Source: an uncultured delta proteobacterium
GTDB lineage: Bacteria > Desulfobacterota > Desulfomonilia > Desulfomonilales > Desulfomonilaceae
DNA length: 64,000 bases
Direction: 5' to 3'
Assembly: GCA_963789265.1 (NCBI GenBank)
Contig: CAWBKB010000001.1
Location: forward strand, 1,472,001 to 1,536,000
A program made the translations under genes and the position numbers. Position 1 is the stretch's first letter, and each line of letters starts with the position of its first letter. The notes under the pieces are model-generated. The model made no database searches, was not told where the DNA came from, and worked only from the letters and a program-made list of their open reading frames with translations. Positions 18,725 through 59,888 of the stretch are shown in pieces.

Positions 18725-19010
18725 TCCCGACACCCGAAATGGTCTTTGCAACCGTTGCACAAAAGGGAGGCGATTCTGCCCAGGACAGAAATCACGGAAC
18801 CCTCAGGTTCAGGCAACCGGCAACGGTGAGTAAAAACGTGACCGGGTAATCACAACCCCCGGCCGGGACACCGTAAGGTGCATTGCCTCTTTTGGGTATC
18901 CCCCGGTAACCTTGAGAAAAAGAAGGCATCTCTCACGAAGCGTGAATCTCGGAAAGAGTCGTGAGAGGTAGCGTCTCCGGCGAAAGTCGGCGAGGTTATG
19001 AAGGATACCC
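18725..19010 (+). ncRNA. Candidate large structured ncRNA, copy A
   Basis: Homologous to 43314-43596 and 50488-50737; covarying stems and GNRA loops. Confidence 0.7.
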
Positions 19011-19042
19011 AAATTCCACAGACCCATTACCTGACCGTCAAT

Positions 19043-20155
19043 TTATTTCCTTATCTGCCCCGACGGTTCGTATGAATCCCCCGGACCGACCCCGTAGAAA
19101 AATACGACAAGTCGGTAGGGAGGCACGAAATCTCTCTTGTAAAACTCATAGACCGTGGGGCTGATTTTCTTGGGTTTGCCGGAAAAGCAAAGAGATATGA
19201 TCTCATCGGGGGTTTCTTTTTCGATCCGCAAGGTAAACGTTCCTATAGGCCCTTTCCAGTTCCGGCCGGTGCCCAGGATATACTCGACATTCTTCACGTT
19301 AAAATCCACTATCTCGGCACCTTTGGCAGCGAGGTCTTCGAGGTTCTTAGCTATTGCCTGCCTTGTTCGCTGGTCCAGACATGCCTCATGTCTACCGTGA
19401 TCAGCGAACCAGTGCGGTGTGGGTACCGGTACATGGCGATAAACTTTTTGATAGTCCTCAGATAAGTAGCCGAACTCCTTGTTATAGGCATTGCCGCCGT
19501 AAGTTCCGACGACTGGGTTGTAAGAAATCTCTACAACGGTTTCTTTTCCCGCAGGAAAGGTCTGCTCCTAAAATGCCGTTTCGGCGACCTCTAAGTCACT
19601 TATTTGCTTTCCCTTAGCCCAAATGAGATTGTATACAGCATTTTCTTGATCTTTCGTGAGATCAGCCTCATCAGCTTTACCAAAGATTTGTTTGTCGAAC
19701 AAACCGAGTTTCCTTAGCTGAGCCGTCACATCGTGATCAACAACTACGGCCTTGCGAACGACTCCTGGTGCTACCGAACGGCCATCTACCCAAACCTTAA
19801 AAGTTGCCATAATAAACGCAGAACCATCAGCATCCGGAAGCCAGGGACGGGGAGCTACAGGAAATGCGACCGTTGTTTTTATGTCTTTGAGAGATTCGTT
19901 TCGGAAGCGAAATTTAGCTCGTACTGCTTTTGTGGAAATCTCCAAAATCTCTTCGAGCAATCGGATGTCTGCACTCTTGGTGAAGGTGATTCCGCCTGCG
20001 CCAAGACGAGCGGTTGTTTCGTTGGAGAAAGCCTCAGTTGCCGATACCAATGTCGCTGTAACAATTATCAGTTCAGCGAGAAACACTCGAAAGAAAAGGT
20101 GCGTCACGTCGATAATTCTGGAGGTGTTCACAAAGGCCAAGCGATGATCTTTCAT
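19043..20155 (-). pseudogene. DUF4424-like secreted protein with in-frame TAG at 19568-19570
   Basis: GAGGITF..E.LEIS..FRF.N then *EQTFPAG...VEYILGTGRNWKGPIGTFTL in one continuous frame; TAG sits where W (TGG) is expected. Confidence 0.75.
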
Positions 20156-21498: not shown

Positions 21499-22446
21499 AT
21501 GAATCTAGCAGAACTTACAAAGATGACGGAAGCACAAGCTAGAGAATTTCTTGAGGAAGTTCGCTGGCACGGAAATCCTACTTGTCCTCACTGCGGGGGG
21601 ACTGACGCGTATCAACTCCGTGGAAGCGCAACGCGCCCCGGTGTTTGGAAGTGTTCGGCTTGTCGTAAGCAGTTTACTGTGACTGTGGGGACGGTCATGC
21701 ATCGCTCTCATCTCCCTCTTCGTACGTGGGTTATCGCTTTCCATCTTATGTCTTCCTCTAAGAAGGGAATTTCTGCCCTACAACTTCAAAGAGTCTTGGG
21801 AATTGTTAACTATAAGAATGCTTGGCATCTAGCTCATAGAATAAGGCTTGCAATGACAGAGGGCTTAGGAGTCTTCCCCTTGAAGGGAACCGTTGAAGTA
21901 GATGAGACTTATGTTGGGGGCAAGCCGAGAAAAGAGAGCAAGGGCAGCTCAGAGAAGCCAAAGAAAAAGTCTAAGCGTGGTCGTGGGACTGATAAGACTC
22001 CTGTGCTAGCTTTGGTAGAGAGAAACGGTAACGTAGTCTCTAAGCCCATAGAAAGAGTTAATGCTTCTACCCTCAAAGGTGCTATCAAGGAAATGGTTCA
22101 CAAAGATTCTTGTATCATGACCGACGAATGGTCTTCTTACACTGGTATTGGTGAGCATTTCAATGGTGGTCATGAAGTAGTGAAACACAATGACGGTGAG
22201 TTTGTCAGAGGAAATGCGAGCACCAATACGGTAGAATCTTACTTCGCACTGTTGAAGAGAGGCGTCCACGGAGCATTCCATCACGTGTCTAAGACACACT
22301 TACACAGATACTGCGATGAATTTTCTTTCAGGTGGAATCATAGAAAGATTGACGACGGTGAGAGGACAGTTTGCATTATTCAGGGTATAGGTGGAAAGAG
22401 GCTTGTATATGCTGATTGCAGGGGATTAATACATGAGCACAACTAA
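21499..22446 (+). CDS. IS1595 family transposase
   Basis: Zn ribbon CPHC/CSAC, SSKKGISALQL, VEVDETY, IMTDEW, NTVES and EFSFRWN motifs. Confidence 0.93.
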   Translation: MNLAELTKMTEAQAREFLEEVRWHGNPTCPHCGGTDAYQLRGSATRPGVWKCSACRKQFTVTVGTVMHRSHLPLRTWVIAFHLMSSSKKGISALQLQRVLGIVNYKNAWHLAHRIRLAMTEGLGVFPLKGTVEVDETYVGGKPRKESKGSSEKPKKKSKRGRGTDKTPVLALVERNGNVVSKPIERVNASTLKGAIKEMVHKDSCIMTDEWSSYTGIGEHFNGGHEVVKHNDGEFVRGNASTNTVESYFALLKRGVHGAFHHVSKTHLHRYCDEFSFRWNHRKIDDGERTVCIIQGIGGKRLVYADCRGLIHEHN

Positions 22447-23842
22447 TGCTGAGCTTGAGGAATGGATGAGAGTACCCCGCGAGGGTGTTCTAGAGTTCAA
22501 GGCGGCAAGGAACCAGTATGACCGCGAAAAGGTGTATGGTTATAGTGTGGCAATTGCGAATGAAGGTGGGGGCAAACTCATTCTTGGTGTGAGTGATTCA
22601 CTTCCTCGTCAGGTGGTTGGAAGTAATGCGTTTCGCAACATAGGTAAGATTACTCAACAGCTTTTTACAAAGCTTCCCTTTCAGGTAGATGTGGAAGAAT
22701 TGCCACATCCAGACGGACGTGTAGTGATATTTCACATACCTGCCCGACCTATAGGTACTCCTTATGAGCTTGACGGAAAATTTCTAATGCGCGTGGGTGA
22801 ATCTCTAGTTCCGATGTCTTCGGACCGTCTCCGACAAATATTGGATGAGGGTAAACCTGACTGGTTTTCTGAGGAGGCTAAGAACGAATGTTCATCAGAT
22901 GATGTAATACAATTGTTAGATGTTCAGAGCTATTTTGACTTAACGAAAACATCGCTTCCAACAACGCGCGATGCTATTCTGGACCGATTTGAACAGGAGA
23001 GTTTGATTCTACGAAAGGGAGAATTCTGGGCAATAACCAACTTGGGGGCTATCCTCTTTGCTAAGAATTTAGAGCACTTCGTTTCTACTTCTCGTAAAGC
23101 TCCGAGAGTGATTGTGTATCCTGGAGTTGATAAGACGGATACCGCTCGTATTGATGAATTCAAGAAAAAAGGATACGCCGCTGGTTTTGAGTCTCTCATA
23201 GACTTTATCAATGGACAGATTCCAACAAATCCAACTATTCTCAAAATCTTGCGCGACGAAAAGAAAATGTTTCCTGAGATTGCTATACGCGAGGTTATAG
23301 CAAACGCCCTTATTCATCAAGATCTTACAGAAACAGGCATGTTTGTAATGGTGGAACTTTACTCAGACCGACTGGAAATCTCAAATCCTGGGGCACCGGC
23401 TATCCCGCCCGAACGATTTATTGATGGGTACAAAGCACGTAATGAGCGGTTAGCGGACCTAATGCGGCGTATGGGCATTTGCGAAGAAAGAGGTAGTGGA
23501 ATAGACAAAGTCATTCGTTGGGTGGAAGTATATCAACTGCCTGCTCCTGTTTTCCGAGACGGTCAGCAGGATACCCAAGTAATTCTGTTCTCGCACAAAG
23601 AGTTTGAGGATATGGACCGCTCTGACCGCATTCGAGCCTGCTACCAACACTGCTGCCTGCGCTATGTCATGACAAAAGGTATGACTAATCAGAGTTTGCG
23701 TAAAAGATTTGATCTAGATAAGAATCAGACACATGCAGTCTCTCGAATTATTGCGGCAACAGTCCAAGAAGGACGAATCAAATTGGCTGATACGGGGACG
23801 ACCTCAACCCGATACACTAAATATATTCCATCATGGGCTTGA
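22433..23842 (+). CDS. AlbA_2 (Schlafen-like) plus HATPase_c_4/HTH protein
   Basis: LEFK..SVAIANEGGGKLILGVSD; AIREVIANALIHQD, LEISNPG, RNERLA and CEERGSGIDK motifs. Confidence 0.85.
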   Translation: MSTTNAELEEWMRVPREGVLEFKAARNQYDREKVYGYSVAIANEGGGKLILGVSDSLPRQVVGSNAFRNIGKITQQLFTKLPFQVDVEELPHPDGRVVIFHIPARPIGTPYELDGKFLMRVGESLVPMSSDRLRQILDEGKPDWFSEEAKNECSSDDVIQLLDVQSYFDLTKTSLPTTRDAILDRFEQESLILRKGEFWAITNLGAILFAKNLEHFVSTSRKAPRVIVYPGVDKTDTARIDEFKKKGYAAGFESLIDFINGQIPTNPTILKILRDEKKMFPEIAIREVIANALIHQDLTETGMFVMVELYSDRLEISNPGAPAIPPERFIDGYKARNERLADLMRRMGICEERGSGIDKVIRWVEVYQLPAPVFRDGQQDTQVILFSHKEFEDMDRSDRIRACYQHCCLRYVMTKGMTNQSLRKRFDLDKNQTHAVSRIIAATVQEGRIKLADTGTTSTRYTKYIPSWA

Positions 23843-30896: not shown

Positions 30897-31706
30897 TCAA
30901 AAGATTTCGGTAGCTGCGAGTCTGACGTGATCTGCGGTGACGATGGTGGATTGGTTGTTTGCCGCTGCGACGAGAGCGCCTCTTGCCAGATGGTTAGCCT
31001 TCCTGAATGTTCCTCCTGAGCCTTGATGGATTGCGGTGATCGCAGCGTCGTCAAAGAGGCTGGATTTGACGCCTGTGAGAGAGAGATGGTGAGAGAGGTA
31101 CTGTTCCATCTCCTGCCTGCTGACCGGCTCCATATGGCTGCGTGCGACGATTCGTGACGCGAGCGGAGCGGAGGTTTGATACATGAGCTTGTCGATGAGG
31201 TTGCTCCGCCCGGTCAGGACAATAGGCAACCACGGTTTTGAGTCAGCCTCGAAGACGGTGATGGTGTGGATCTCGGCAAAGACCTCCAGACGCATCAACG
31301 ATGCCTCATCGACCACCAGCACGATCTTCATCTTCTTTTCCAGGATCACTTCCCGTACTGCCTTCTTGATAAGGCGCACCATGATGGCTTTCTGTGATCC
31401 CGCCATGTGAATACCGAATTCAGCGAGGAAGAGCCGATAAAACTCCAGAATGGAGCCTGAGCAGGCAGTGATCCACACGGTCTTGTATTCGGATGGGTGG
31501 AGCTTTGAGATGACGTACCTGAGAGCCGTGGACTTTCCCGATCCCACCTCGCCGGTGAGGGTCGCAATAGCTCCCAACCTGACCGTATAGTCAAAGCGCT
31601 CTTTGATTGCTGCAATGTCTTGGGTTTCCAGAATGTCCTTGATGTTTATGTCGGTGGGGAACGCCTCCCGGCTCATGCCGAAGAAAGATCGATAGTTGGT
31701 GCTCAT
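30897..31706 (-). CDS. ExeA-like AAA ATPase (transposition regulator)
   Basis: Walker A GEVGSGKST, Walker B VLVVDEA; ATGA overlap with the transposase. Confidence 0.9.
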   Translation of the reverse strand: MSTNYRSFFGMSREAFPTDINIKDILETQDIAAIKERFDYTVRLGAIATLTGEVGSGKSTALRYVISKLHPSEYKTVWITACSGSILEFYRLFLAEFGIHMAGSQKAIMVRLIKKAVREVILEKKMKIVLVVDEASLMRLEVFAEIHTITVFEADSKPWLPIVLTGRSNLIDKLMYQTSAPLASRIVARSHMEPVSRQEMEQYLSHHLSLTGVKSSLFDDAAITAIHQGSGGTFRKANHLARGALVAAANNQSTIVTADHVRLAATEIF

Positions 31707-33004
31707 GTACGGTCCTTCTTTCCCCAAAGACTTCCACCTTGGTATTTTTCTGCCTCCTCGGAGGATTGAAGCTCTATATTTCGCCACTTGTCCCGTTTCA
31801 CCCGGCTATTGACGTGGATATTTACTGGGGCAGCCATGCCGAAAGAGACTCCGCCGAGCATGATCTCGACCTGATCCGGCTCTTGTTCGTGATATAGAAG
31901 GGCGACTTGTTTGCCTATGAGGGGGACAGGCGCTTCAAAGATCCTTCCGTCCAAGCTTATGGTCCTGTCTTTTGCTACTCTTCGTCGCACGGTCTTGCGA
32001 AAATAGTCCCTGAGATTGCGGGGAGTTTCTCTCAGGCATTCCATACGTGACGTAAACCGGGCAAAGGGAGTCTGGCCGGTGGAAGAATGTACCCGCTGGT
32101 GGTAGATGTCACCCAGCCAGAAGAAGAGGGCTTGATTCAGATCGGCAAGCGTAGTGCCTTTGAAGCCGGACAGAAAATCGCCCCTCACTGTGCGGAAGAA
32201 CCGCTCGATTTTCCCTTTGCCTTGTGGCTTGTACGGCCGTGCATGGATAAGGGCGATCCCGAGGCTCGCGGTGACATGCTCCAGGTGATGGGAACGAAAG
32301 GCGCTCCCATTGTCGGTATAGATTTTCCTGGGGAGTCCTCTGGTCAAGAGGGCTTCCTCAAGGGCTTTCAAATACGATGGAAGCGACTCGGTGAGATAAA
32401 ACTCGGCATGAGGAACCAGGCGAGAGTGATCGTCGATGAATGCAAGGAGATAGGTTTTCCTCTTCTTCCCCTCGTGCTCCACGCTCGGGCCATGCATGCA
32501 GTCGGACTGCCACAGATCGTTCGGTAACTCAGCTTCGAATTTCCGTCGATCTTCGAGCCTGGCCTCATCTCCCTTCATCAGACCATTGGTTCTCAGGAAG
32601 CGGTGTACCGTTGTAGCGGTGAGAGTGATGCCAGGCGATACCAGTCGTCTCTTGTTCATCTCACGGATCAGCCGGGCGACCGTTGCCTTGGAAAGCTCCG
32701 CCCTCAAACGGATCAAAGCCAAACCGGTCTCTTCATCTATGGCGCGGCTCTTCCCATGATCTGATCTATCATGGTTAGCCAGCGCCTCCAGTTTGCCGCC
32801 AGAGTCTTTGTAGAGCTTCACCCAGCGCAGGATAGTGCTCCGGGTAATACGGGTCTTGTCCGAGAATGGAATCACCCATTTTCGGTCGCACTTGTCCCTT
32901 ATGAGCCTCTCCTGCTCGCCAGGTTCGAGCGCCGCATGTCCTACGAGGTCATGAATCACCCCGAACCGAAACGTTGCAATCTGCTTTTTCTTATCTTCCT
33001 CCAT
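31703..33004 (-). CDS. DDE (rve) transposase with Mu-like C-terminal domain
   Basis: WQSDCMHG, FIDDHSR, YTDNGSAF and GKGKIERFFRT motifs. Confidence 0.93.
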   Translation of the reverse strand: MEEDKKKQIATFRFGVIHDLVGHAALEPGEQERLIRDKCDRKWVIPFSDKTRITRSTILRWVKLYKDSGGKLEALANHDRSDHGKSRAIDEETGLALIRLRAELSKATVARLIREMNKRRLVSPGITLTATTVHRFLRTNGLMKGDEARLEDRRKFEAELPNDLWQSDCMHGPSVEHEGKKRKTYLLAFIDDHSRLVPHAEFYLTESLPSYLKALEEALLTRGLPRKIYTDNGSAFRSHHLEHVTASLGIALIHARPYKPQGKGKIERFFRTVRGDFLSGFKGTTLADLNQALFFWLGDIYHQRVHSSTGQTPFARFTSRMECLRETPRNLRDYFRKTVRRRVAKDRTISLDGRIFEAPVPLIGKQVALLYHEQEPDQVEIMLGGVSFGMAAPVNIHVNSRVKRDKWRNIELQSSEEAEKYQGGSLWGKKDRT

Positions 33005-33108
33005 CGATCTGCCTCCTTGGGTATGTTGTCTGGGGTGGTACTCCCAAGACAATCCCAGGACAACGACACTCTTCGGTAGGGTGTGTGAGCGTCGATGGAC
33101 AGTGCAGA

Positions 33109-36737: not shown

Positions 36738-36950
36738 AAACTTCTGGCAATCATCAAGACCAGCCTCATCGCCGGAGAGGACTTAATGATCTCCGGCTTC
36801 GGAAAGTGGAACGTCAAGTCAAAGCACGCCAGGCGTGGCAGGAACCCTCAAACCGGCGAGGAGATGGTGCTTGATGCCCGTAGAGTCGTGACCTGGAGTT
36901 ATTCGCCGGTATTGAAGAAGGCGGTGAATGTGGCTGGGAAAACGTCTTAG
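36738..36950 (+). pseudogene. 5'-truncated integration host factor alpha-like gene
   Basis: KLLAIIKTSLIAGEDLMISGFGKWNVKSKHARRGRNPQTGEEMVLDARRVVTW; preceded by an in-frame TAA and lacking the N-terminus. Confidence 0.8.
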
Positions 36951-43134: not shown

Positions 43135-43311
43135 ATGAAGAAAACCATACCAGTAGAAACGATCACTGCGGATATCAAGAATGGGATCCCGGACGCGGAA
43201 CTTATGAAAAAATACGGACTGCCGGAAGAAAGCTTAAAGAAGGTGTTTGACAGGCTGTTGAGGGCTGCGTGTAATGGGTCTCGTCACGCAGAGGTAGAGG
43301 TTAAAGAATAA
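43135..43311 (+). CDS. 58 aa protein made of the recurrent helical domain
   Basis: MKKTIPVETITADIKNGIPDAELMKKYGLPEESLKKVFDRLL...; read manually. Confidence 0.65.
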   Translation: MKKTIPVETITADIKNGIPDAELMKKYGLPEESLKKVFDRLLRAACNGSRHAEVEVKE

Positions 43312-43313
43312 CG

Positions 43314-43596
43314 CTCCCGATGACCTGAAGGATCTCTGCAACGGTTGCAGACGGGGAGGCAATGAGTCGTAGGAAAGCAATGATGGAACCCGGCGTTCAG
43401 GCAGACCCTCCAAAGGGGTCCCGTGAGAACATCACTCAGTAACCACTCTGAGCTACGGCAGGTGCGTTGGCTCTCTGGGGTATCCTCGACAGCCCTGGAA
43501 AAAGAAGGCAGCTCTCGTGGAGCCTGGACCTCTCCCAGTGAGGGTCGCGAGAGTAACGCCTCCGGTTCATTCCGGCGGGGTTGTTCGGGGGATACC
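43314..43596 (+). ncRNA. Candidate large structured ncRNA, copy C (most diverged)
   Basis: Same stem architecture as copies A and B with compensatory substitutions. Confidence 0.7.
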
Positions 43597-43743: not shown

Positions 43744-43876
43744 TTACGGTTGATAGCCTTTTTCTGGGCTTTCCTTGGCTCCGTGCGCCTTCAGGAGTCG
43801 TACTATCTCGACTTCACCCCTTTTCGAAGCCTCCGCCACCGCCGTCTCACCCTTGGCATTGACATCCGCTCCCTTG
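43744..43876 (-). pseudogene. 3' remnant of the DUF4424-ankyrin gene, separated by the transposon
   Basis: KGADVNAKGETAVAEASKRGEVEIVRLLKAHGAKE continues VKVLLD from 46819. Confidence 0.85.
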
Positions 43877-44046
43877 TGTAGATTTTCAAATTGTATGGAC
43901 TGAAAAGGGGTGATTTTCTCAGAATAGATTGACCTGGGGAGAAAAAATATCAGAATAGATGGACGGGATGAATGAATAGGGCGGTGGCTTGACGGAGCTA
44001 CCGCCCGAAGCATGTACGGGCCATAAGGCCCCTCAAAGGTATTGTC

Positions 44047-44493
44047 ATGATAGTCTTCCTGTCTGTCTCCATCAAGGAGATTGTGGAGAGGGGGCGGGAT
44101 TTTCCCTGGCCCCGGCCCAAGAATTGCCCTCGGTGCGGCGGTACTCGGTTATGGGGTCATGGATTTGTCACTGCCATTTTCGATGGTTTTGTTACCCATG
44201 TTTTGCTCCGACGCTGGCGTTGTCCGGAATGCCGCTGCGTGGTGAGGATTCGGCCCAGCGGATATTTCCCTCGATTTCAGGCTTCTGTTGACACTATTCG
44301 TTCGTCCATTGCCTTTAGGCTGGCAAATGACAGATGGCCTGGAGATATTCCACGGTCCAGGCAAGGGCATTGGCTGAGATCTCTTAAAAGGAGAGTGAAT
44401 GCCTTGCTTGGCCAGAGATGGAGCAGACGTCTGCTGGAGGGTTTCGATGAGTTGATGCTCAAAAATGAGCCCCCGGTTTGCCGTCGCATCTAA
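44047..44493 (+). CDS. Zn-finger accessory protein (DUF6431-like)
   Basis: CPRC..WGHG..RRWRCPEC; homolog of 33109-33555. Confidence 0.75.
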   Translation: MIVFLSVSIKEIVERGRDFPWPRPKNCPRCGGTRLWGHGFVTAIFDGFVTHVLLRRWRCPECRCVVRIRPSGYFPRFQASVDTIRSSIAFRLANDRWPGDIPRSRQGHWLRSLKRRVNALLGQRWSRRLLEGFDELMLKNEPPVCRRI

Positions 44494-44598
44494 TCTGCGA
44501 AGCCCGTCGATCCGGTTGCACCCTACCGAAGAGTGCCGTTGTGCTGGGATTGTGTTCGGGGTACCACCCCAGGCAACATACCTAAGGAGGGAGACCCG

Positions 44599-45901
44599 AT
44601 GGACGAAGATGAGAAAAAGCGGATTGCGGCCTTCAGGTTTGGCGTGATTCACGACCTGGTGGGGAATGTGGAGCTGGAACCCGGTGAGCAGGAGCGCCTG
44701 ATACGGGAGAAGTGCGACCGGAAATGGGTGATACCCTTTTCACAGAAGACTCGTATTACCCGCAGCACAATTTTGCGCTGGGTGAAGCTCTACAAGGAGT
44801 CCGGCGGCAAATTGGAGGTGTTGGCCAACCGAGGGAGGTCTGATAACGGCAAGAGTCGCGCCATAGACGAAGAGACCAGTTTGGCTTTGATCCGTTTGAG
44901 GTATGAGCTTCCCAAGGCTACCATAGCCCGTCTCTTGCGTGAGATGAACAAGCGACAACTGGTCTCTCCGGGGCTAGTCCTTACTAGATCAACAGTACAC
45001 CGCTTCTTGAGCAGCAATGGTCTCATGAAGCAGAATCAGATCACGGCCGAAGACCGCAGACGGTTTGAAGCTGAACTGCCCAATGATCTGTGGCAGTCGG
45101 ATTGCATGCACGGGCCAAAAGTGGATCATCAGGGGAAGAATCGAAAGACCTATCTCATTGCTTTCATAGACGACCATTCCAGGTTGGTTCCTCATGCCGA
45201 GTTTTACCTCTCCGAGTCACTCCCGTCGTTTCTGAAAGCCCTTGAAGAAGCCCTCTTGACCAGAGGGCTACCCAGAAAAATCTATACGGACAATGGAAGT
45301 GCCTTTCGCTCCCATCATCTGGAACACGTCACGGCAAGCCTTGGGATTGCTCTCATCCATGCAAGGCCGTACAAACCACAGGGAAAGGGAAAAATAGAGA
45401 GGTTCTTCCGAACCGTGAGGGGGGACTTTCTGTCTTGCTTCAAAGGAAATACGCTTGCCGAGCTGAATCAAGCCCTGTTCTTCTGGTTGAATGACATCTA
45501 TCATCAGAGAATACACTCCTCAACAGGGCAAACCCCCTTTGCTCGGTTCACTTCAAGAATGGAATGCCTGAGAGAAGCCCCTCACAATCTCAAAGACTAT
45601 TTTCGCAAGACCGTGCGGCGCAGAGTAGCAAAGGACAGGACCATAAGCCTGGACGGAAGGATCTATGAAGCACCTGTCTCACTCATCGGGCGTCAGGTGG
45701 CCCTTCTGTACCACGAGGGGGAACCGGAGCGAGTAGAGATCATGCTCGGCGGGGTCTCCTACGGTATGGCCACCCCCGTAAACCTCCACGTCAATTGCCG
45801 GGTGAAGCGGGATAAGGTACAGCAGCATTAGACTGGAAGGCACGGAACAATCCGAAAAATACCAGAGTGGCGGCCTCTGGGGGAAGAGAGGCCGTAAATG
45901 A
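44599..45901 (+). CDS. DDE transposase, +1 frameshift at 45816-45817
   Basis: Same motifs as copy 1; removing one G restores ...EKYQSGGLWGK and the ATGA overlap with the ATPase. Confidence 0.9.
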
Positions 45902-46707
45902 GTACCAATTACCGCTCATTTTTCGGTATGACTCGTGAGGCTTTCCCAACGGATATAAGCGTCAAGGACATCATGGAGACTCAAGATATCAAGGCTATCA
46001 AAGAGCGCTTTGATTATACGGTCAGGCTGGGGGCCATTGCGACCATCACCGGTGAGGTGGGATCGGGAAAGTCTACAGCGCTCCGGTACGTTATCTCGAA
46101 GCTTCACCCCTCAGAATACAAAACCCTCTGGATTACTGCCTGTTCAGGCTCGATCCTGGAGTTTTATCGGCTCTTTCTCGCTGAATTCGGCGTACACATG
46201 GCAGGCTCGTCAAAAGCGGTGATGGTACGCCTCATAAAAAAGGCAATACGGGAAATCATCCTTGAGAAGAAGATGAAAATCGTGCTGGTCGTCGATGAGG
46301 CGGGCCTATTGCGCCTGGAGGTCCTTGCCGAACTCCACACCATCACCCAATTCGAGGCTGACTCAAAACCCTGGCTCCCCATCATCCTTACGGGGAGGTC
46401 GAATCTCATCGACAAACTCATGTATCAAACATCCCTGCCGCTCGCTTCAAGGGGCGTCGCACGAACCCACATGGAACCTGTAGAAAGACAAGAGATGGAG
46501 CATTACCTACTCCATCACCTTGCTCTCACCGGCGTCAAATCCAACCTCTTCGATGATCCGGCCATCACAGCCATCCATCAAGGCTCAGGAGGAATATTCA
46601 GAAAGGCAAATCATCTGGCAAGAGGGGCTCTCATCGCAGCGGCCGACAGCCAATCTACCCTCGTTACCGCCGACCACGTCAGGCTGGCTGCCACGGAAAT
46701 CTTTTAA
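45898..46707 (+). CDS. ExeA-like AAA ATPase
   Basis: GEVGSGKST and VLVVDEA motifs. Confidence 0.9.
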   Translation: MSTNYRSFFGMTREAFPTDISVKDIMETQDIKAIKERFDYTVRLGAIATITGEVGSGKSTALRYVISKLHPSEYKTLWITACSGSILEFYRLFLAEFGVHMAGSSKAVMVRLIKKAIREIILEKKMKIVLVVDEAGLLRLEVLAELHTITQFEADSKPWLPIILTGRSNLIDKLMYQTSLPLASRGVARTHMEPVERQEMEHYLLHHLALTGVKSNLFDDPAITAIHQGSGGIFRKANHLARGALIAAADSQSTLVTADHVRLAATEIF

Positions 46708-46818
46708 GCAACCAAAACCGGGCCGGACCACCAGGCCCGGTCCAGACAATCTGAAAAAAACAGGAGGATTATCCCAAATAATCAGAGAAAATCGGTCAAT
46801 CTAATGTGGGAAACAACA

Positions 46819-47929
46819 CCTTGTCCAACAGAACCTTCACTGGTTCCACGTTACGACTACGTGAGGCCCACATCAGTGCTGTCCCACCATCCCTATCCTT
46901 GGCATTGACGTCCGCTCCCTTGTCCAACAGGGTCTTCAGCACCTCAACGTGACCAAACCACGAGGCATACATCAGTGCTGTCCTGCCAAAGAAACCGATG
47001 GCATTGACACCCGCTCCCTTGTCCAACAGAACCTTCACTGTCTCCACGCGACCAGATAATGAAGCCTCCATCAGTAATGTCAACTCACTCGGTGTCATCG
47101 CATTGACATCCCCACCTTCAGCCAAGAGACCTTCCACAGCAGCGGTGTCGCCTCTTCTGACAGCTTGATCTAAAAGAAAGTAGCTATCACGCTTGGCTTC
47201 ATGCTCTGAACAGAAACAGACTTCGATTTCAGCATGAGGATCACTCGGTTTGAAATCACTTATCTCGTATTTCACTTGTTTAGGGGAAATAAGTGTTTGA
47301 GTGCTTGTCGCCGGTTCTCCACGTACTCGAAAATTCATTTTGCTAGCCTGATTTCCATCTATAATAAAAACAGCCTTTCCTATCGTACCGTTCCAAAACG
47401 AACCTGTTCCGTAAATATACCTCGCGCAAATACCCTCGTATTTCGCCTTGTATCGCACGCGCGTCACCGTAGCAGAATGACCTGAAAACGTCACTTTCTT
47501 TGCCATCCAGTGATCGCCCGGAACCCCCGTGGGTTCGCCGTCTTCGTCTGAAAGAAACTTGTGGACGGAATCCCACAACCCCGGAAGATTACCTTTCTCA
47601 CTTACTTCTGTGAATTCTACTTCTTGGTCGTTAACCCAAGTTTCAAATTTAATAAATTGAAAGGTCTTACCAAAAACTTTCGGAAAACCAACCCACTCCG
47701 TGGTGGTTTCCCCAGCGTTAAAGAAGTGAAAGACAGCATCGACGATATAGCTATCGTACAGCAACTTAATAGTTACTTCTTCGGATTCCATTCTAATCGA
47801 TTGGTGGTGACCTTTTGGCGACGGACCTCCCCCAACTAATCCCATCGGCATCTCATTTGTTTCTCCCAGACTAGTGAAGAAAAGAGATGCCCCGCTCGCC
47901 AGGCACAAAAGAAGTACAAATAATCTCAT
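46819..47929 (-). pseudogene. Secreted DUF4424-like plus ankyrin protein, interrupted by transposon copy 2
   Basis: Signal peptide, IRMESEEV.I, YIYGTGSFW.G.I, then ankyrin repeats cut at the TSD. Confidence 0.85.
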
Positions 47930-48099
47930 GGGTATCCCCCGTAAAACCCATTGCCTGCTCAGTTTTAGTGTGAGCAGTCCCCCGTGACCGGACCCAGGCA
48001 AGAACCGGCGTGACGTTGATGAAAAAGTCCATTTTAGGCTGTTGCTAAATATACCTAGCCCTCCGCTGCTGCGTCAACCATTTCTTCCACCGCATCGTC

Positions 48100-48300: not shown

Positions 48301-48536
48301 ACTCACGGTCACAGGCTAACCAATGATTCTTACCTGTCCTTCGAAGGGACACCTAGCCTCAAGGCGTCACCGCATGTTGTCCTTCCGTACTCGTCATCTC
48401 GTTTGTCAGCTCCCCCAGCGGATATTCTCGACAAAATTGACCTCCTGAGAACCACGTAGGGCGACGATCTGGGTCAGAGCAAGGGGTAAGGCAGGGGGCA
48501 ACAGAGGTTGCGGGAAATCGCATCTGAGTGGCTCGT
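48301..48536. repeat. ~230 bp non-coding repeat F2, copy a (copy b 50758-50984)
   Basis: Shared ccaatgatt..tacctgtccttcga.gggacacctagcctcaa, tgtccttccgtactc, ccagcggatattctc and aaatcgcatctgag.ggctcgt. Confidence 0.85.
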
Positions 48537-49205: not shown

Positions 49206-49229
49206 GCCAGTGGGTTGATGTCACTAAGA

Positions 49230-49267
49230 TAACGCCTCCGCTAGTCGGCGGGGTTGTCGGGGGATAC
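49230..49267 (+). ncRNA. 3' fragment (copy D) of the candidate structured RNA
   Basis: taacgcctccg..cggcggggttgtcgggggatac matches the 3' end of copies A-C. Confidence 0.65.
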
Positions 49268-49340
49268 GAAGACGATAGAATAATCACCATCGAAATCCCC
49301 AATCCTGCAGCCGAGCTATCGCTTCGTTCAAAACGCCTTT

Positions 49341-50405: not shown

Positions 50406-50487
50406 CTCGGTACTGTCTTGGTCGTTGTGTTGGATTGGAGCTATAGATACGACATGGAAAGAAACTTCGCAATATGATGAAGCGAAA

Positions 50488-50737
50488 GGGAGGCGATTCT
50501 GCCCAGGAAGGAAATCACGGAACCCTCAAGTTCAGGCAACCGGCAACGGTGAGTGCAAACGTGACCGGGTACACGGGTACTGCGAAGGACCCACCCCCGG
50601 CTGGGACTTGACATCGCCTCTCAAGGGTATCTCCGACAGCCTTGGAAAAAAAAGGCCCCTCCGCGAAGCCTGAACCTCGAAAGAGTCGCGAGAGTAATGC
50701 CTCCGACGAAAATCGGCGGGGTTGTTGAGGGATACCC
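50488..50737 (+). ncRNA. Candidate large structured ncRNA, copy B
   Basis: Homologous to copies A and C; perfect GTTCAGGC/GCCTGAAC long-range complement. Confidence 0.7.
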
Positions 50738-50757
50738 AAGTTCACTTGCCCTTCATG

Positions 50758-50984
50758 ACTCACGGGTTTACCCAATGATTTCTACCTGTCCTTCGATGGG
50801 ACACCTAGCCTCAACTCTCGGCACTTTGTCCTTCCGTACTCATCATCTCGTTTCTCAGCTCTCCCAGCGGATATTCTCAAAAGATGGACGCCCTGAGAAC
50901 AACGTAGAGCCACGATCTGGGGTCGGTGAAGGGTAAGGGTCGGGAGAAAAAGCACGACCCGCAAATCGCATCTGAGAGGCTCGT
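50758..50984. repeat. ~230 bp non-coding repeat F2, copy b
   Basis: Alignment with 48301-48536. Confidence 0.85.
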
Positions 50985-51666: not shown

Positions 51667-52821
51667 ATGCTAACAGAAAGACACAAAACAGAGCCAGATT
51701 TACCCCCTCAAGACCTCGTAACCGCTGCCTTGGACTACGCCCGCAAAGGCTTCCGAATCTTTCCCCTTCATTCAGTTGACGATCAGGGACATTGCTCCTG
51801 TGGAAAACAAGACTGCGGCAGCCCCGGCAAACACCCGCGGAACTGGAACGGTCTCAAGGGAGCCACCACCGACGAGACCCAAATCCTCAAGTGGTGGACG
51901 AAGTTCCCTGATGCGAACATAGGTATCCGCACCGGCAAGGGTCTCTTCGTCCTAGACGTGGATGAGGACGAAGGCGAAGATTCTCTCCGTGACCTTGAAG
52001 AGAAGTGTGGAAAACTTCCAGAGACCTGGGAATGCCTCACCGGACGTGGACGCCATATCTATCTGCTATCACCCACCGACAAATACATAAAGAGTTCAAG
52101 AAGCCTGATCGGAACCAAACTGGACGTCCGCTGTGAGGGAGGCTACGTAGTTGCGCCTCCTTCCCGGCATTACTTTGGAAACCGCTATGAATGGGAATGT
52201 ACGTGTCATTCAGAAGATATTCCTATGGCGGAGGCTCCTGAATGGATGATTCGACTCGCGTGTACGAAGAAGAGATCGAAATCAAATCAGAGGTGGGGCA
52301 GTACCTTCAAACCAGTCCTTCACATCGGGGAGCGGAACGAGACCCTGTTCAAAGAGGCATGCCATCTCAGAGACCTGGGCTTATCCAGGGAAAGGGTAGA
52401 GCATTATACACGCCTCCGCAATCGGTGTGATTGCCAGCCTCCTCTCAAAGACACGGAAGTGGAGACCATACTTCGTCAGGCATACAGATATTCCAAACGC
52501 CCCTGTCGAAAAGGCCGATTGTCTCCGGGTTCCGAGAGAGTTTTCCGTTACCTCGTGGAAAGATCATTGCATAGGGGCAACTGCTTGCTCAGCAAGGAAG
52601 AGATAGCGATTGCTGTCGGTTTGAAGAAGAGGCAGGTCTTCACCTGTATTCGCCAGTTGGAAAGACAAGGGCTATTACGGGTTCAGGAGCATAACGGTAT
52701 GGAAAGTCTATATTTTCCCCAGACCCATGCAGTACCCATGCAGTCCTTACATATAGGGGCAAGGGAAAGTACAGATTCTGAGTCCCCTATACAAGAGACA
52801 CCCCTGAGAGTCATGAAATAA
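51667..52821 (+). CDS. Bifunctional DNA primase/polymerase (Prim-Pol) with PriCT-like and HTH domains
   Basis: FPL..C.CG...C.SPGKHP, NIGI.TG..FVLDVD, TGRGRHIY, DVR..GGYVVAPPS.H, GERNETLF; C-terminal HTH. Confidence 0.88.
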   Translation: MLTERHKTEPDLPPQDLVTAALDYARKGFRIFPLHSVDDQGHCSCGKQDCGSPGKHPRNWNGLKGATTDETQILKWWTKFPDANIGIRTGKGLFVLDVDEDEGEDSLRDLEEKCGKLPETWECLTGRGRHIYLLSPTDKYIKSSRSLIGTKLDVRCEGGYVVAPPSRHYFGNRYEWECTCHSEDIPMAEAPEWMIRLACTKKRSKSNQRWGSTFKPVLHIGERNETLFKEACHLRDLGLSRERVEHYTRLRNRCDCQPPLKDTEVETILRQAYRYSKRPCRKGRLSPGSERVFRYLVERSLHRGNCLLSKEEIAIAVGLKKRQVFTCIRQLERQGLLRVQEHNGMESLYFPQTHAVPMQSLHIGARESTDSESPIQETPLRVMK

Positions 52822-59207: not shown

Positions 59208-59888
59208 TTAGGCATCGCCCAAATCTTCGTCGCTCAGCCCGTAACGTTTTTTTACTGATTCAATCTCTAAGCGTCTGAATTCTAGTCCATCCTCCAGGAG
59301 GGCCACAAGAGCCTCTCCATCGTACGGGCCAATAATAGGGTCATGATAACGATACTCGCTTTGGCAGTAGTAACCTTCGATGGTGTTCATATACTTGCGC
59401 ATGAGGACGAGTACATCTTCAATCATCTGTCGCGATACGCCGGGCAGGGGGTCTGCCCCAGGCTGAATTGAGGCGTTGTCGAGATGCGCTATGCGCTTGT
59501 TACGATGAGTCCGAATTGCCCCACATTTACCAGGCTTGTCCGAGCTGTTGGGGACACCACAAAGCTCAACCAATATCTCGCTGAGTTTGGAGGAAAGCCC
59601 TTGGTCGCCGAGTTTCTCCACTTGTTCCTGCAATCGCAAGAGTGAAAGGTTCTCATTCCCGCCGATGGTAGCACGATCAATGAGTTTCCCCAGCGAGAGC
59701 TGGATCTCATCTATCAGTACCCCATGAATAAAGAAAAAAAACGTAGAGGCACAGCTATTTAACAATCTCACTCGCGCATCGGAGTGTGCAAAGAGCTGGC
59801 GGTAGATTTTCCACCGGGCGTGCAGGGACGTGATTTCATTCTTCAGTTGGTCGAATACGACTTTTATGGATTCAGGAACATCGTTCAT
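59208..59888 (-). CDS. HEPN AbiU2-like protein
   Basis: W..Y.QLF, L.L.KL.D, NLSL..L and IRTHRNKRIAHLD (RxxxxH). Confidence 0.75.
   Translation of the reverse strand: MNDVPESIKVVFDQLKNEITSLHARWKIYRQLFAHSDARVRLLNSCASTFFFFIHGVLIDEIQLSLGKLIDRATIGGNENLSLLRLQEQVEKLGDQGLSSKLSEILVELCGVPNSSDKPGKCGAIRTHRNKRIAHLDNASIQPGADPLPGVSRQMIEDVLVLMRKYMNTIEGYYCQSEYRYHDPIIGPYDGEALVALLEDGLEFRRLEIESVKKRYGLSDEDLGDA

Follow-up and report, generated by a model that had tools for sequence, protein, structure and literature searches.

The locus and the parts of copy C

In the 64-kb stretch of DNA analysed here (the window), copy C of a repeated element lies on the + strand between a small ORF of the same strand and a convergent fragment of an ankyrin-repeat gene. 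The insertion sequence at 44047-46707 splits this gene into two parts (43744-44013 and 46796-48001, both on the - strand). It is related to a second insertion sequence at 30897-33052; each encodes a rve-type (Mu-like) transposase and an AAA_22 ATPase, and the first also carries a DUF6431 ORF. Genes typical of islands, namely a Prim-Pol primase with PriCT, an AbiU2-type HEPN protein, a Schlafen/AlbA_2 ATPase and an IS1595 transposase, are found at 51667-52821, 59208-59888, 22433-23842 and 21499-22446 of the window, and tyrosine recombinases lie ~11 kb before and ~2 kb after it; the window thus looks like a variable, island-rich region. The features at and around copy C are as follows.

43135..43311, + strand: 58-aa ORF, ending 41 nt before the core and 24 nt before the leader hairpin
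43335..43351, + strand: leader hairpin just 5' of the core, palindrome TCTGCAAC-G-GTTGCAGA (from the sequence and the MFE fold)
43353-43596, + strand: core of copy C
43353..43476, + strand: 5' domain, closed by P1 (43353-43363/43466-43476)
43367-43372/43453-43458, + strand: P2
43381-43385/43430-43434, + strand: P3
43391-43393/43421-43423, + strand: P4
43395..43402, + strand: conserved internal loop GUUCAGGC, 5' partner of a proposed 8-bp inter-domain pairing
43404-43409/43415-43420, + strand: P5
43435-43439/43448-43452, + strand: P6
43479..43596, + strand: 3' domain, a three-way junction closed by P8
43479-43496/43577-43596, + strand: P8, long stem with one bulge
43497-43508, + strand: A-rich junction strand
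43506-43561, + strand: P9/P10/P11
43522..43529, + strand: conserved internal loop GCCUGGAC (family consensus GCCUGAAC), 3' partner of the proposed inter-domain pairing
43562-43575, + strand: P12 hairpin
43744..44013, - strand: ankyrin-gene fragment, convergent and downstream of copy C; the gene resumes at 46796-48001

The 58-aa ORF and copy C may be co-transcribed. The initial annotation had proposed that copy C supplies the compensatory changes that support an RNA fold, and a direct reading of the sequence found every motif that it named in copy C in its place. TGATG (43381-43385) pairs with CATCA (43430-43434) where A and B have TCACG/CGTGA, CTCAG (43435-43439) pairs with CTGAG (43448-43452) where A and B have CCGGG/CCCGG, and TCGTAG (43367-43372) pairs with CTACGG (43453-43458) where B and a further copy, D, have CCCAG/CTGGG. 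A hairpin of GACCCT (43404-43409) and GGGGTC (43415-43420) stands in place of ACCG-GCAA-CGGT, the linkers GGAACCC (43386-43392) and GTTCAGGCA (43395-43403) are retained, and the 5' hairpin TGCAAC/GTTGCA occurs in C (43338-43350) as well as in A (18747-18759). Of the 74 pairs of copy C, 69 are intact, with 7 single changes, 5 broken pairs and 13 double changes, the highest number among 29 copies, which bears out the description of copy C as the one with the compensatory changes. The P7 hairpin is absent from this copy.

Fold, covariation and strand

The element is predicted to fold into two domains with 12 helices, on which single-sequence folds (5 copies), RNAalifold (19 copies) and inspection agree. 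The 5' domain is closed by P1 (~10 bp, 5' strand GGGAGGCGAU); within it P2 encloses P3 and P3 encloses P4 and P5, with P6 beside P3, P7 after P2, and a conserved 10-nt internal loop separating P4 and P5. The 3' domain is closed by P8, a stem of 18 bp with one bulge and a three-way junction on top, of which the 5' strand is the near-invariant GAAAAAGA. From this junction P9 leads to P10 and P11, with a conserved internal loop of 9-10 nt between the latter two, and P12 stacks beside P9. GNRA-type loops cap P11 and, usually, P5 and P7. The earlier reading of three copies is thereby extended by a closed 3' domain, by a complementarity between loops and by a repeat-like spread in the genome.

We estimated the support for this fold in an alignment of 29 distinct copies, made with MAFFT and unfitted to the structure, with the fold itself derived from these mutually related sequences. 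In this alignment, 91.5% of 2116 pairing cells were paired, against 38-43% when the partners were slid by 1-3 columns. Both sides had changed in 32 of the 77 pairs, and double-change cells numbered 134 against 45.5 +/- 6.5 after shuffling, with none of 500 shuffles reaching 134. All 12 helices were 84-96% paired and 11 of them carried double-sided changes; P9 carried none and gives little information either way. Covariance-model alignments of the separate halves, which lean towards structure because they are fitted to the half-models, gave 30 of 36 pairs double-changed and 91.8% paired for the 5' domain (40 distinct sequences; 184 double-change cells versus 56.1 +/- 6.0), and 18 of 39 pairs double-changed and 91.6% paired for the 3' domain (49 distinct sequences; 52 double-change cells versus 22.2 +/- 6.4); the observed number was reached in 0 of 500 shuffles for either domain. 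The covariation is clearest in P6, which has at least three versions (CCGGG/CCCGG, CUCAG/CUGAG and CCACG/CGUGG), in P4, which alternates between CUCA/UGAG and UGGG/CCCA, and in P3, which alternates between CACG/CGUG and GAUG/CAUC. The U-G pair that closes P8 is near-invariant (28 of 29 copies). The stems thus drift by compensatory change while the loops stay fixed, which is indicative of selection on a precise three-dimensional RNA and not on a protein or a DNA repeat. This pattern shows that the element is under selection for a precise RNA fold on the + strand, the fold being a prediction from sequence, and the covariation is strong enough to justify work at the bench.

The near-invariant internal loops of the two domains, GUUCAGGC in the 5' domain and GCCUGAAC in the 3' domain, are exact reverse complements. 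None of 2000 shuffles gave an 8-nt complement between unpaired segments of the consensus; the maximum was 7, obtained twice. Among the 29 copies, 93.7% of the cells of the proposed loop-loop pairing are paired, with no double-sided change; the variation is one-sided and compatible with wobble pairing (e.g., a change from A to G yields G-U in 11 copies). In the larger set of 40 copies, 28 match at 8 of 8 positions and a single copy carries a double-sided change, from A-U to G-C. Conservation and wobble-compatible changes give good circumstantial support, short of proof by covariation, to the view that the two loops probably pair over 8 bp between the domains, within one molecule or between molecules. 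This predicted contact of domains is a clear and testable structural hypothesis.

The two strands differ in how well they fold. The + strand of copy C folds at -112.4 kcal/mol (z = -2.66; 2 of 200 shuffles were as good), against z = -0.90 for the - strand. Read on the + strand, G-U cells exceed A-C cells by 189 to 77 overall, most markedly in P8 (95 versus 10), P1 (40 versus 18) and P12 (12 versus 2), with no bias in P9 (6 versus 10) and P10 (18 versus 12). The excess of G-U and the folding energy favour the + strand as the functional strand. A protein-coding gene was considered and rejected, as stops interrupt all six frames in 13 of 29 copies and the length of 313 of the 349 internal gap runs is not divisible by three; the element is non-coding. 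That selection acts on structure and not on coding sequence, as the initial annotation had held, agrees with both sets of results, in that the helices pair with double-sided changes and no reading frame is kept.

Copies, distribution and genomic placement

Copies A, B and C are genuine repeats, since a repeat finder ties the stretch of C to 18762-18950 (A) and 50485-50731 (B), and a three-way alignment has a mean column identity of 74%. The window holds three further features of the family.

18763-19014, + strand: copy A, full core, with a leader hairpin at 18747-18759
49229..49270, + strand: relic of a 3' domain, 42 nt, model positions 202-246 (nhmmer E 9.6e-5)
50486-50741, + strand: copy B, full core, with an additional hairpin within the P6 loop

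The genome as a whole (6.06 Mb, 9 contigs) carries 6 two-domain copies and a number of half-copies. Copy D lies just upstream of the window, and a span of 52 kb contains D, A, C and B, each on the + strand. D has a duplicate, 99% identical, on another contig and inside a duplicated block of 6.8 kb. This block (G000:C1:1467696-1474493, reaching into the window at 1-2493, against contig C5 at ~419000; 99.1% identity) reflects a recent duplication or else an artefact of assembly; the estimated contamination of the genome is 6%. Elsewhere, contig C8 carries a full-length copy with a degenerate 5' part (copy G), a lone 5' domain and a 3' fragment, contig C6 a diverged copy spanning most of the element (model positions 4-213), and contig C7 two 3' fragments. 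The copies in this genome are mutually only 56-77% identical. Several copies of the family look decayed (e.g., 57 of 70 pairs kept in G, 55 of 69 in locus L023 and 60 of 75 in locus L055), and not every copy need therefore be functional.

Two other sequences lie beside some of the copies. A broken DUF4424 gene, convergent to copy A and downstream of it, occupies 19043-20155 of the window on the - strand (G000:C1:1491109-1492023) as two ORFs with one in-frame TAG; intact DUF4424 paralogs adjoin the element in another genome (G005). DUF4424 was rejected as a partner, being found in 9 of 61 genomes unlinked to the RNA and neighbouring it in one locus group only. A repeat of ~220 nt occurs at 48317-48536 and 50769-50984 of the window, 71-91% alike; its second copy begins 28 nt after B, where a - strand ORF of 89 aa overlaps it. 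This repeat also trails the element in loci L068 and L023, lies 1.3 kb after copy G, and is probably a small family of convergent genes.

We then searched for the family beyond this genome. None of the 4227 models of Rfam 15 matched at the gathering threshold across the whole 64-kb window, and a permissive search over C and A returned matches at the level of chance (E 4.8 and 5.3, 11-15 bits versus thresholds of 40-69). Among the titles and abstracts returned by a full-text literature search, none described an RNA of this kind from Desulfomonile or Desulfomonilaceae. Two covariance models, R1 for the 3' half and R2 for the 5' half, each detected the element in 13 of the 70 genomes of the order, and R1 matched in 0 of 52 genomes of the sister family. 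When the half-model matches from the 70 genomes were joined, they gave 29 copies with both domains, and also 11 5' domains and 14 3' domains that stand alone, with a load of 1-14 copies per genome (at most 8 full copies or 14 matches to the 3' domain). By BLAST, 7 of 61 related genomes carry the element, and all 7 belong to one family. A pattern scan over one genome per species gave 15 loci, of which 9 match the element profile and come from Desulfomonilaceae or from MAGs labelled "delta proteobacterium"; the other 6 (Binatia, Acidobacteria, Limnocylindria, Spirochaetales and Rhodospirillales among them) have no profile match and were counted as chance. A scan of public metagenome contigs by pattern gave 23 loci, 21 of which match the profile, 19 of them substantially. 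Viral contigs (pattern) and phage and plasmid records (blastn) gave no match. Across the genomes searched, the element is found only in Desulfomonilaceae; its presence is patchy among close relatives, and 3 of 6 other genomes of the window's genus carry it. The copies form an undescribed structured-RNA family with a core of ~250 nt, of which some Desulfomonilaceae genomes carry several diverged copies. This adds a well-supported, uncatalogued family of structured RNA from poorly studied, mostly uncultured sulfate-reducing and dehalogenating bacteria of soil and sediment.

The placement of the copies follows a pattern. The nearest downstream ORF was convergent in 15 of the 19 copies examined and, once loci with shared flanks were merged, in 11 of 15, in counts taken from mechanical ORFs and with related loci that are not independent; this ORF is often 4-145 nt from the element. 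Upstream, the neighbouring ORF mostly shares the strand of the element, with 10-190 nt between its end and the core. Apart from the duplications, the DNA flanks of the copies are unrelated to one another, and between genomes of this genus the flanks have diverged too far for an alignment that would reveal empty sites. Pfam scans of the ORFs flanking the 3 window copies, 13 other loci and 4 cluster regions revealed no recurrent neighbour gene; the neighbours are ordinary and varied (e.g., transporters, dehydrogenases, glyoxalases, ankyrin proteins, kinases and insertion sequences). Complete genes resembling HU/IHF lie upstream of the element in 5 loci of other genomes (L014, L020, L041, L047 and L049). 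The window's own genome has five full-length, close HU/IHF paralogs that do not adjoin copies, and an HU/IHF-like fragment (36741-36941 of the window, + strand, 67 aa matched) lies 6.4 kb before C.

Copies also occur close together in one orientation. In one genome (G080), two contigs carry three matches each, all inside 5.3 kb on one and 7.8 kb on the other, and pairs 3-4.5 kb apart occur in two other genomes (G004 and G006) and on one metagenome contig. Loci that share flanks may hold differing copies; copy G and locus L059 are 69% alike, with a near-identical upstream flank. The mosaic metagenome locus L062 (51-969) joins the 5' domain of one copy to the 3' part of a different copy across a spacer of 630 nt that encodes a predicted membrane protein of 137 aa. 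The differing copies at shared flanks and the mosaic locus point to recombination or conversion among copies.

Some copies have an extra leader of ~35 nt that ends in a hairpin, and the leader hairpin of C also precedes A, F5, L051, L060 and L061. These ~35 nt before the core, which include an 18-nt palindrome, resemble in some copies the ~65 nt after the core of others, a likeness barely above that of shuffled controls (best score 32 versus 27). A scan of the 3 window copies found no conserved promoter; one of them, B, has a sigma-70-like site that ends 8 nt before its core. A sigma-54 promoter in the leader was rejected by eye for unsuitable spacing, and no canonical terminator follows P8 on the + strand. 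On the - strand, a simple scan placed a terminator-like site within the 3' domain of C and B and none in that of A, with shuffled sequences giving 0.6-1.0 sites per region.

Role of the element and comparison with known systems

In our best explanation, to which we give an even chance, copy C is a member of a dispersed family of accessory structured-RNA elements and would act as a compact RNA body at a 3' end. The element would be transcribed as the tail of the upstream gene on the same strand, or from weak promoters of its own; gaps in which a gene runs into the RNA and a convergent gene faces it, together with the lack of a common promoter, suggest production as the tail of the upstream transcript. 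The + strand RNA would then fold into the branched 5' domain (P1-P7) and the 3' domain (P8 with P9-P12), pairing of GUUCAGGC with GCCUGAAC would clamp the two domains together, and the result may be a compact body at the 3' end of the RNA. On the opposite (-) strand, immediately past the P9-P11 hairpin, the sequence complementary to the invariant A-run (UUCUUUUUC) may end transcription of the convergent gene. This - strand terminator idea is weak, since shuffles give similar sites and lone 3' fragments are without the A-run; for the latter reason, retention of the 3' fragments as terminator modules was rejected. Should it turn out to shape the 3' ends of RNAs from both strands, the element would represent the intergenic repeat type of enteric bacteria in an unusually elaborate form. 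The 12-helix fold, with its GNRA and invariant loops, far exceeds what protection of a 3' end needs, which favours an RNA that binds a protein or acts as a catalyst; an RNA that binds a protein or a ligand, or is catalytic, would account for this fold and these loops equally well.

This excess of structure is what a family of trans-acting non-coding RNA genes would account for, with several paralogous genes per genome encoding the RNA of a ribonucleoprotein, a ligand-binding RNA or a ribozyme, and the convergent gaps being the places where extra genes are tolerated. GNRA-type loops and inter-domain pairing are hallmarks of RNAs with tertiary structure, and the element has such loops on P5, P7 and P11, a likely pairing between its domains, covarying stems and invariant loops (including GGAACC, GUUCAGGCA, GAAAAAGAAGG and AGCCUGAAC); some loci with shared flanks recur across species, and B has the promoter-like site 8 nt upstream of its core. 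Such genes nevertheless sit uneasily with a family in which most genomes gave no match to the element, 3 of the 6 other genomes of the genus among them, in which the copy number runs from 1 to 14 with many half or decayed copies, and in which neither a partner protein gene nearby nor a consistent promoter is found. We regard this reading as possible but doubtful.

The element is accessory, patchily distributed and multi-copy, and it has no gene of its own; this raises the question of how it spreads and persists, and whether it serves the cell or itself. Conceivably, it could be the RNA, or the RNA-coding end, of a mobile element whose movement depends on a protein from another locus, in the manner of IscB/TnpB guide RNAs or IS110 bridge RNAs, or a non-autonomous derivative of one. 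Its clusters and relics, the conserved internal loop in each of its two domains, and the occurrence of four copies of the window's genome in an island-like region rich in insertion sequences would all fit, as would the leader, which resembles the tail of other copies and has the same palindrome, so that hairpins may flank the core on both sides; yet this resemblance barely exceeds that of shuffles, and no terminal inverted repeats are present. No transposase, recombinase, nuclease or reverse transcriptase recurs within ~3 kb of the examined copies. The TnpB-type zinc ribbon (PF07282) has 0 matches in the genome; of five RVT_1 matches none is adjacent to a copy, the nearest being ~11 kb from the half-copy on contig C8; of 12 Phage_integrase matches the nearest are ~9 kb before D and ~15 kb after B; and Y1 transposases, found in 59 of 70 genomes, show no link to the RNA. 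Viruses, phages and plasmids are without matches, as given above. The lone halves are about equal in number (11 of the 5' and 14 of the 3' domain), which argues against 5'-truncated retro-copies, and retro-copying through an excess of 3' fragments was dropped on the same counts. A mobile element of this kind is unlikely.

We consider it a rather slim prospect that the element is a compact two-domain RNA that multiplies without its own gene and whose complementary loops, GUUCAGGC and GCCUGAAC, also act between molecules, in head-to-tail dimers or larger assemblies, or in self-processing or spread that is ribozyme-like or RNA-guided. If true, the family would be a self-sufficient RNA element and not a regulator. 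Very improbable is an element that acts as DNA (a recombination site or single-strand origin in folding single-stranded DNA) or a decaying, functionless repeat with stems left from an ancestral palindrome: many copies are truncated or short of pairs, and one-orientation clusters are seen as with cassette recombination sites, but compensatory changes extend over 11 of the 12 helices and the tree branches deep, the G-U pairs, including the U-G that closes P8 in 28 of 29 copies, fit RNA better, no integrase lies beside the copies, and the fold is multi-branched and not a simple palindrome.

A compact RNA body at a 3' end, our preferred reading, can be set against known systems of several kinds. 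The structured, 150-300-nt RNAs of mobile DNA, namely the omega RNAs of IscB/TnpB and the bridge RNA of IS110, are often multi-copy, and in the bridge RNA each of two stem-loops contains a functional internal loop. Unlike these RNAs, no examined copy of our element is adjoined by a nuclease or recombinase gene, and its loops complement each other and not, as far as seen, the flanking DNA. An omega RNA (HEARO, IS605-orfB) was rejected, as no IscB, IsrB or TnpB gene occurs among the flanking ORFs (Pfam; 3 window copies, 13 loci and 4 cluster regions), and so was an IS110 bridge RNA, as the scanned flanking ORFs contain no IS110-type transposase domain. A retron msr-msd or other RNA linked to a reverse transcriptase was set aside because no RVT_1 match is adjacent to any copy. 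An integration target resembling tRNA or tmRNA, or an integron attC site, does not agree with a branched fold of 250 nt that is no simple palindrome and has no integrase beside it.

The dispersed repeats REP/BIME, ERIC and Correia are short, simple palindromes, usually in many near-identical copies and some with terminal inverted repeats. Our element resembles them in being dispersed, mostly in gaps at the 3' ends of genes that are often convergent, in its variable copy number and decayed copies, and in a possible role at RNA ends. It differs from repeats of the REP, ERIC or MITE type in its branched fold of 12 helices, in its 1-14 copies per genome and in the 56-77% identity of the copies within its own genome; assignment to this class was rejected on fold, identity and copy number, though the convergent intergenic placement matches.

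HEARO, raiA, ROOL, GOLLD and OLE were all of unknown function at discovery, and some of them are multi-copy or linked to mobile DNA. With these RNAs our element shares a restriction to one lineage, multiple helices, GNRA-type loops, covarying stems and conserved loops. It is smaller than they are (~250 nt), is built of two closed domains with complementary internal loops and has no match in Rfam, and no ORF is associated with it, in contrast to HEARO and its link to IscB genes.
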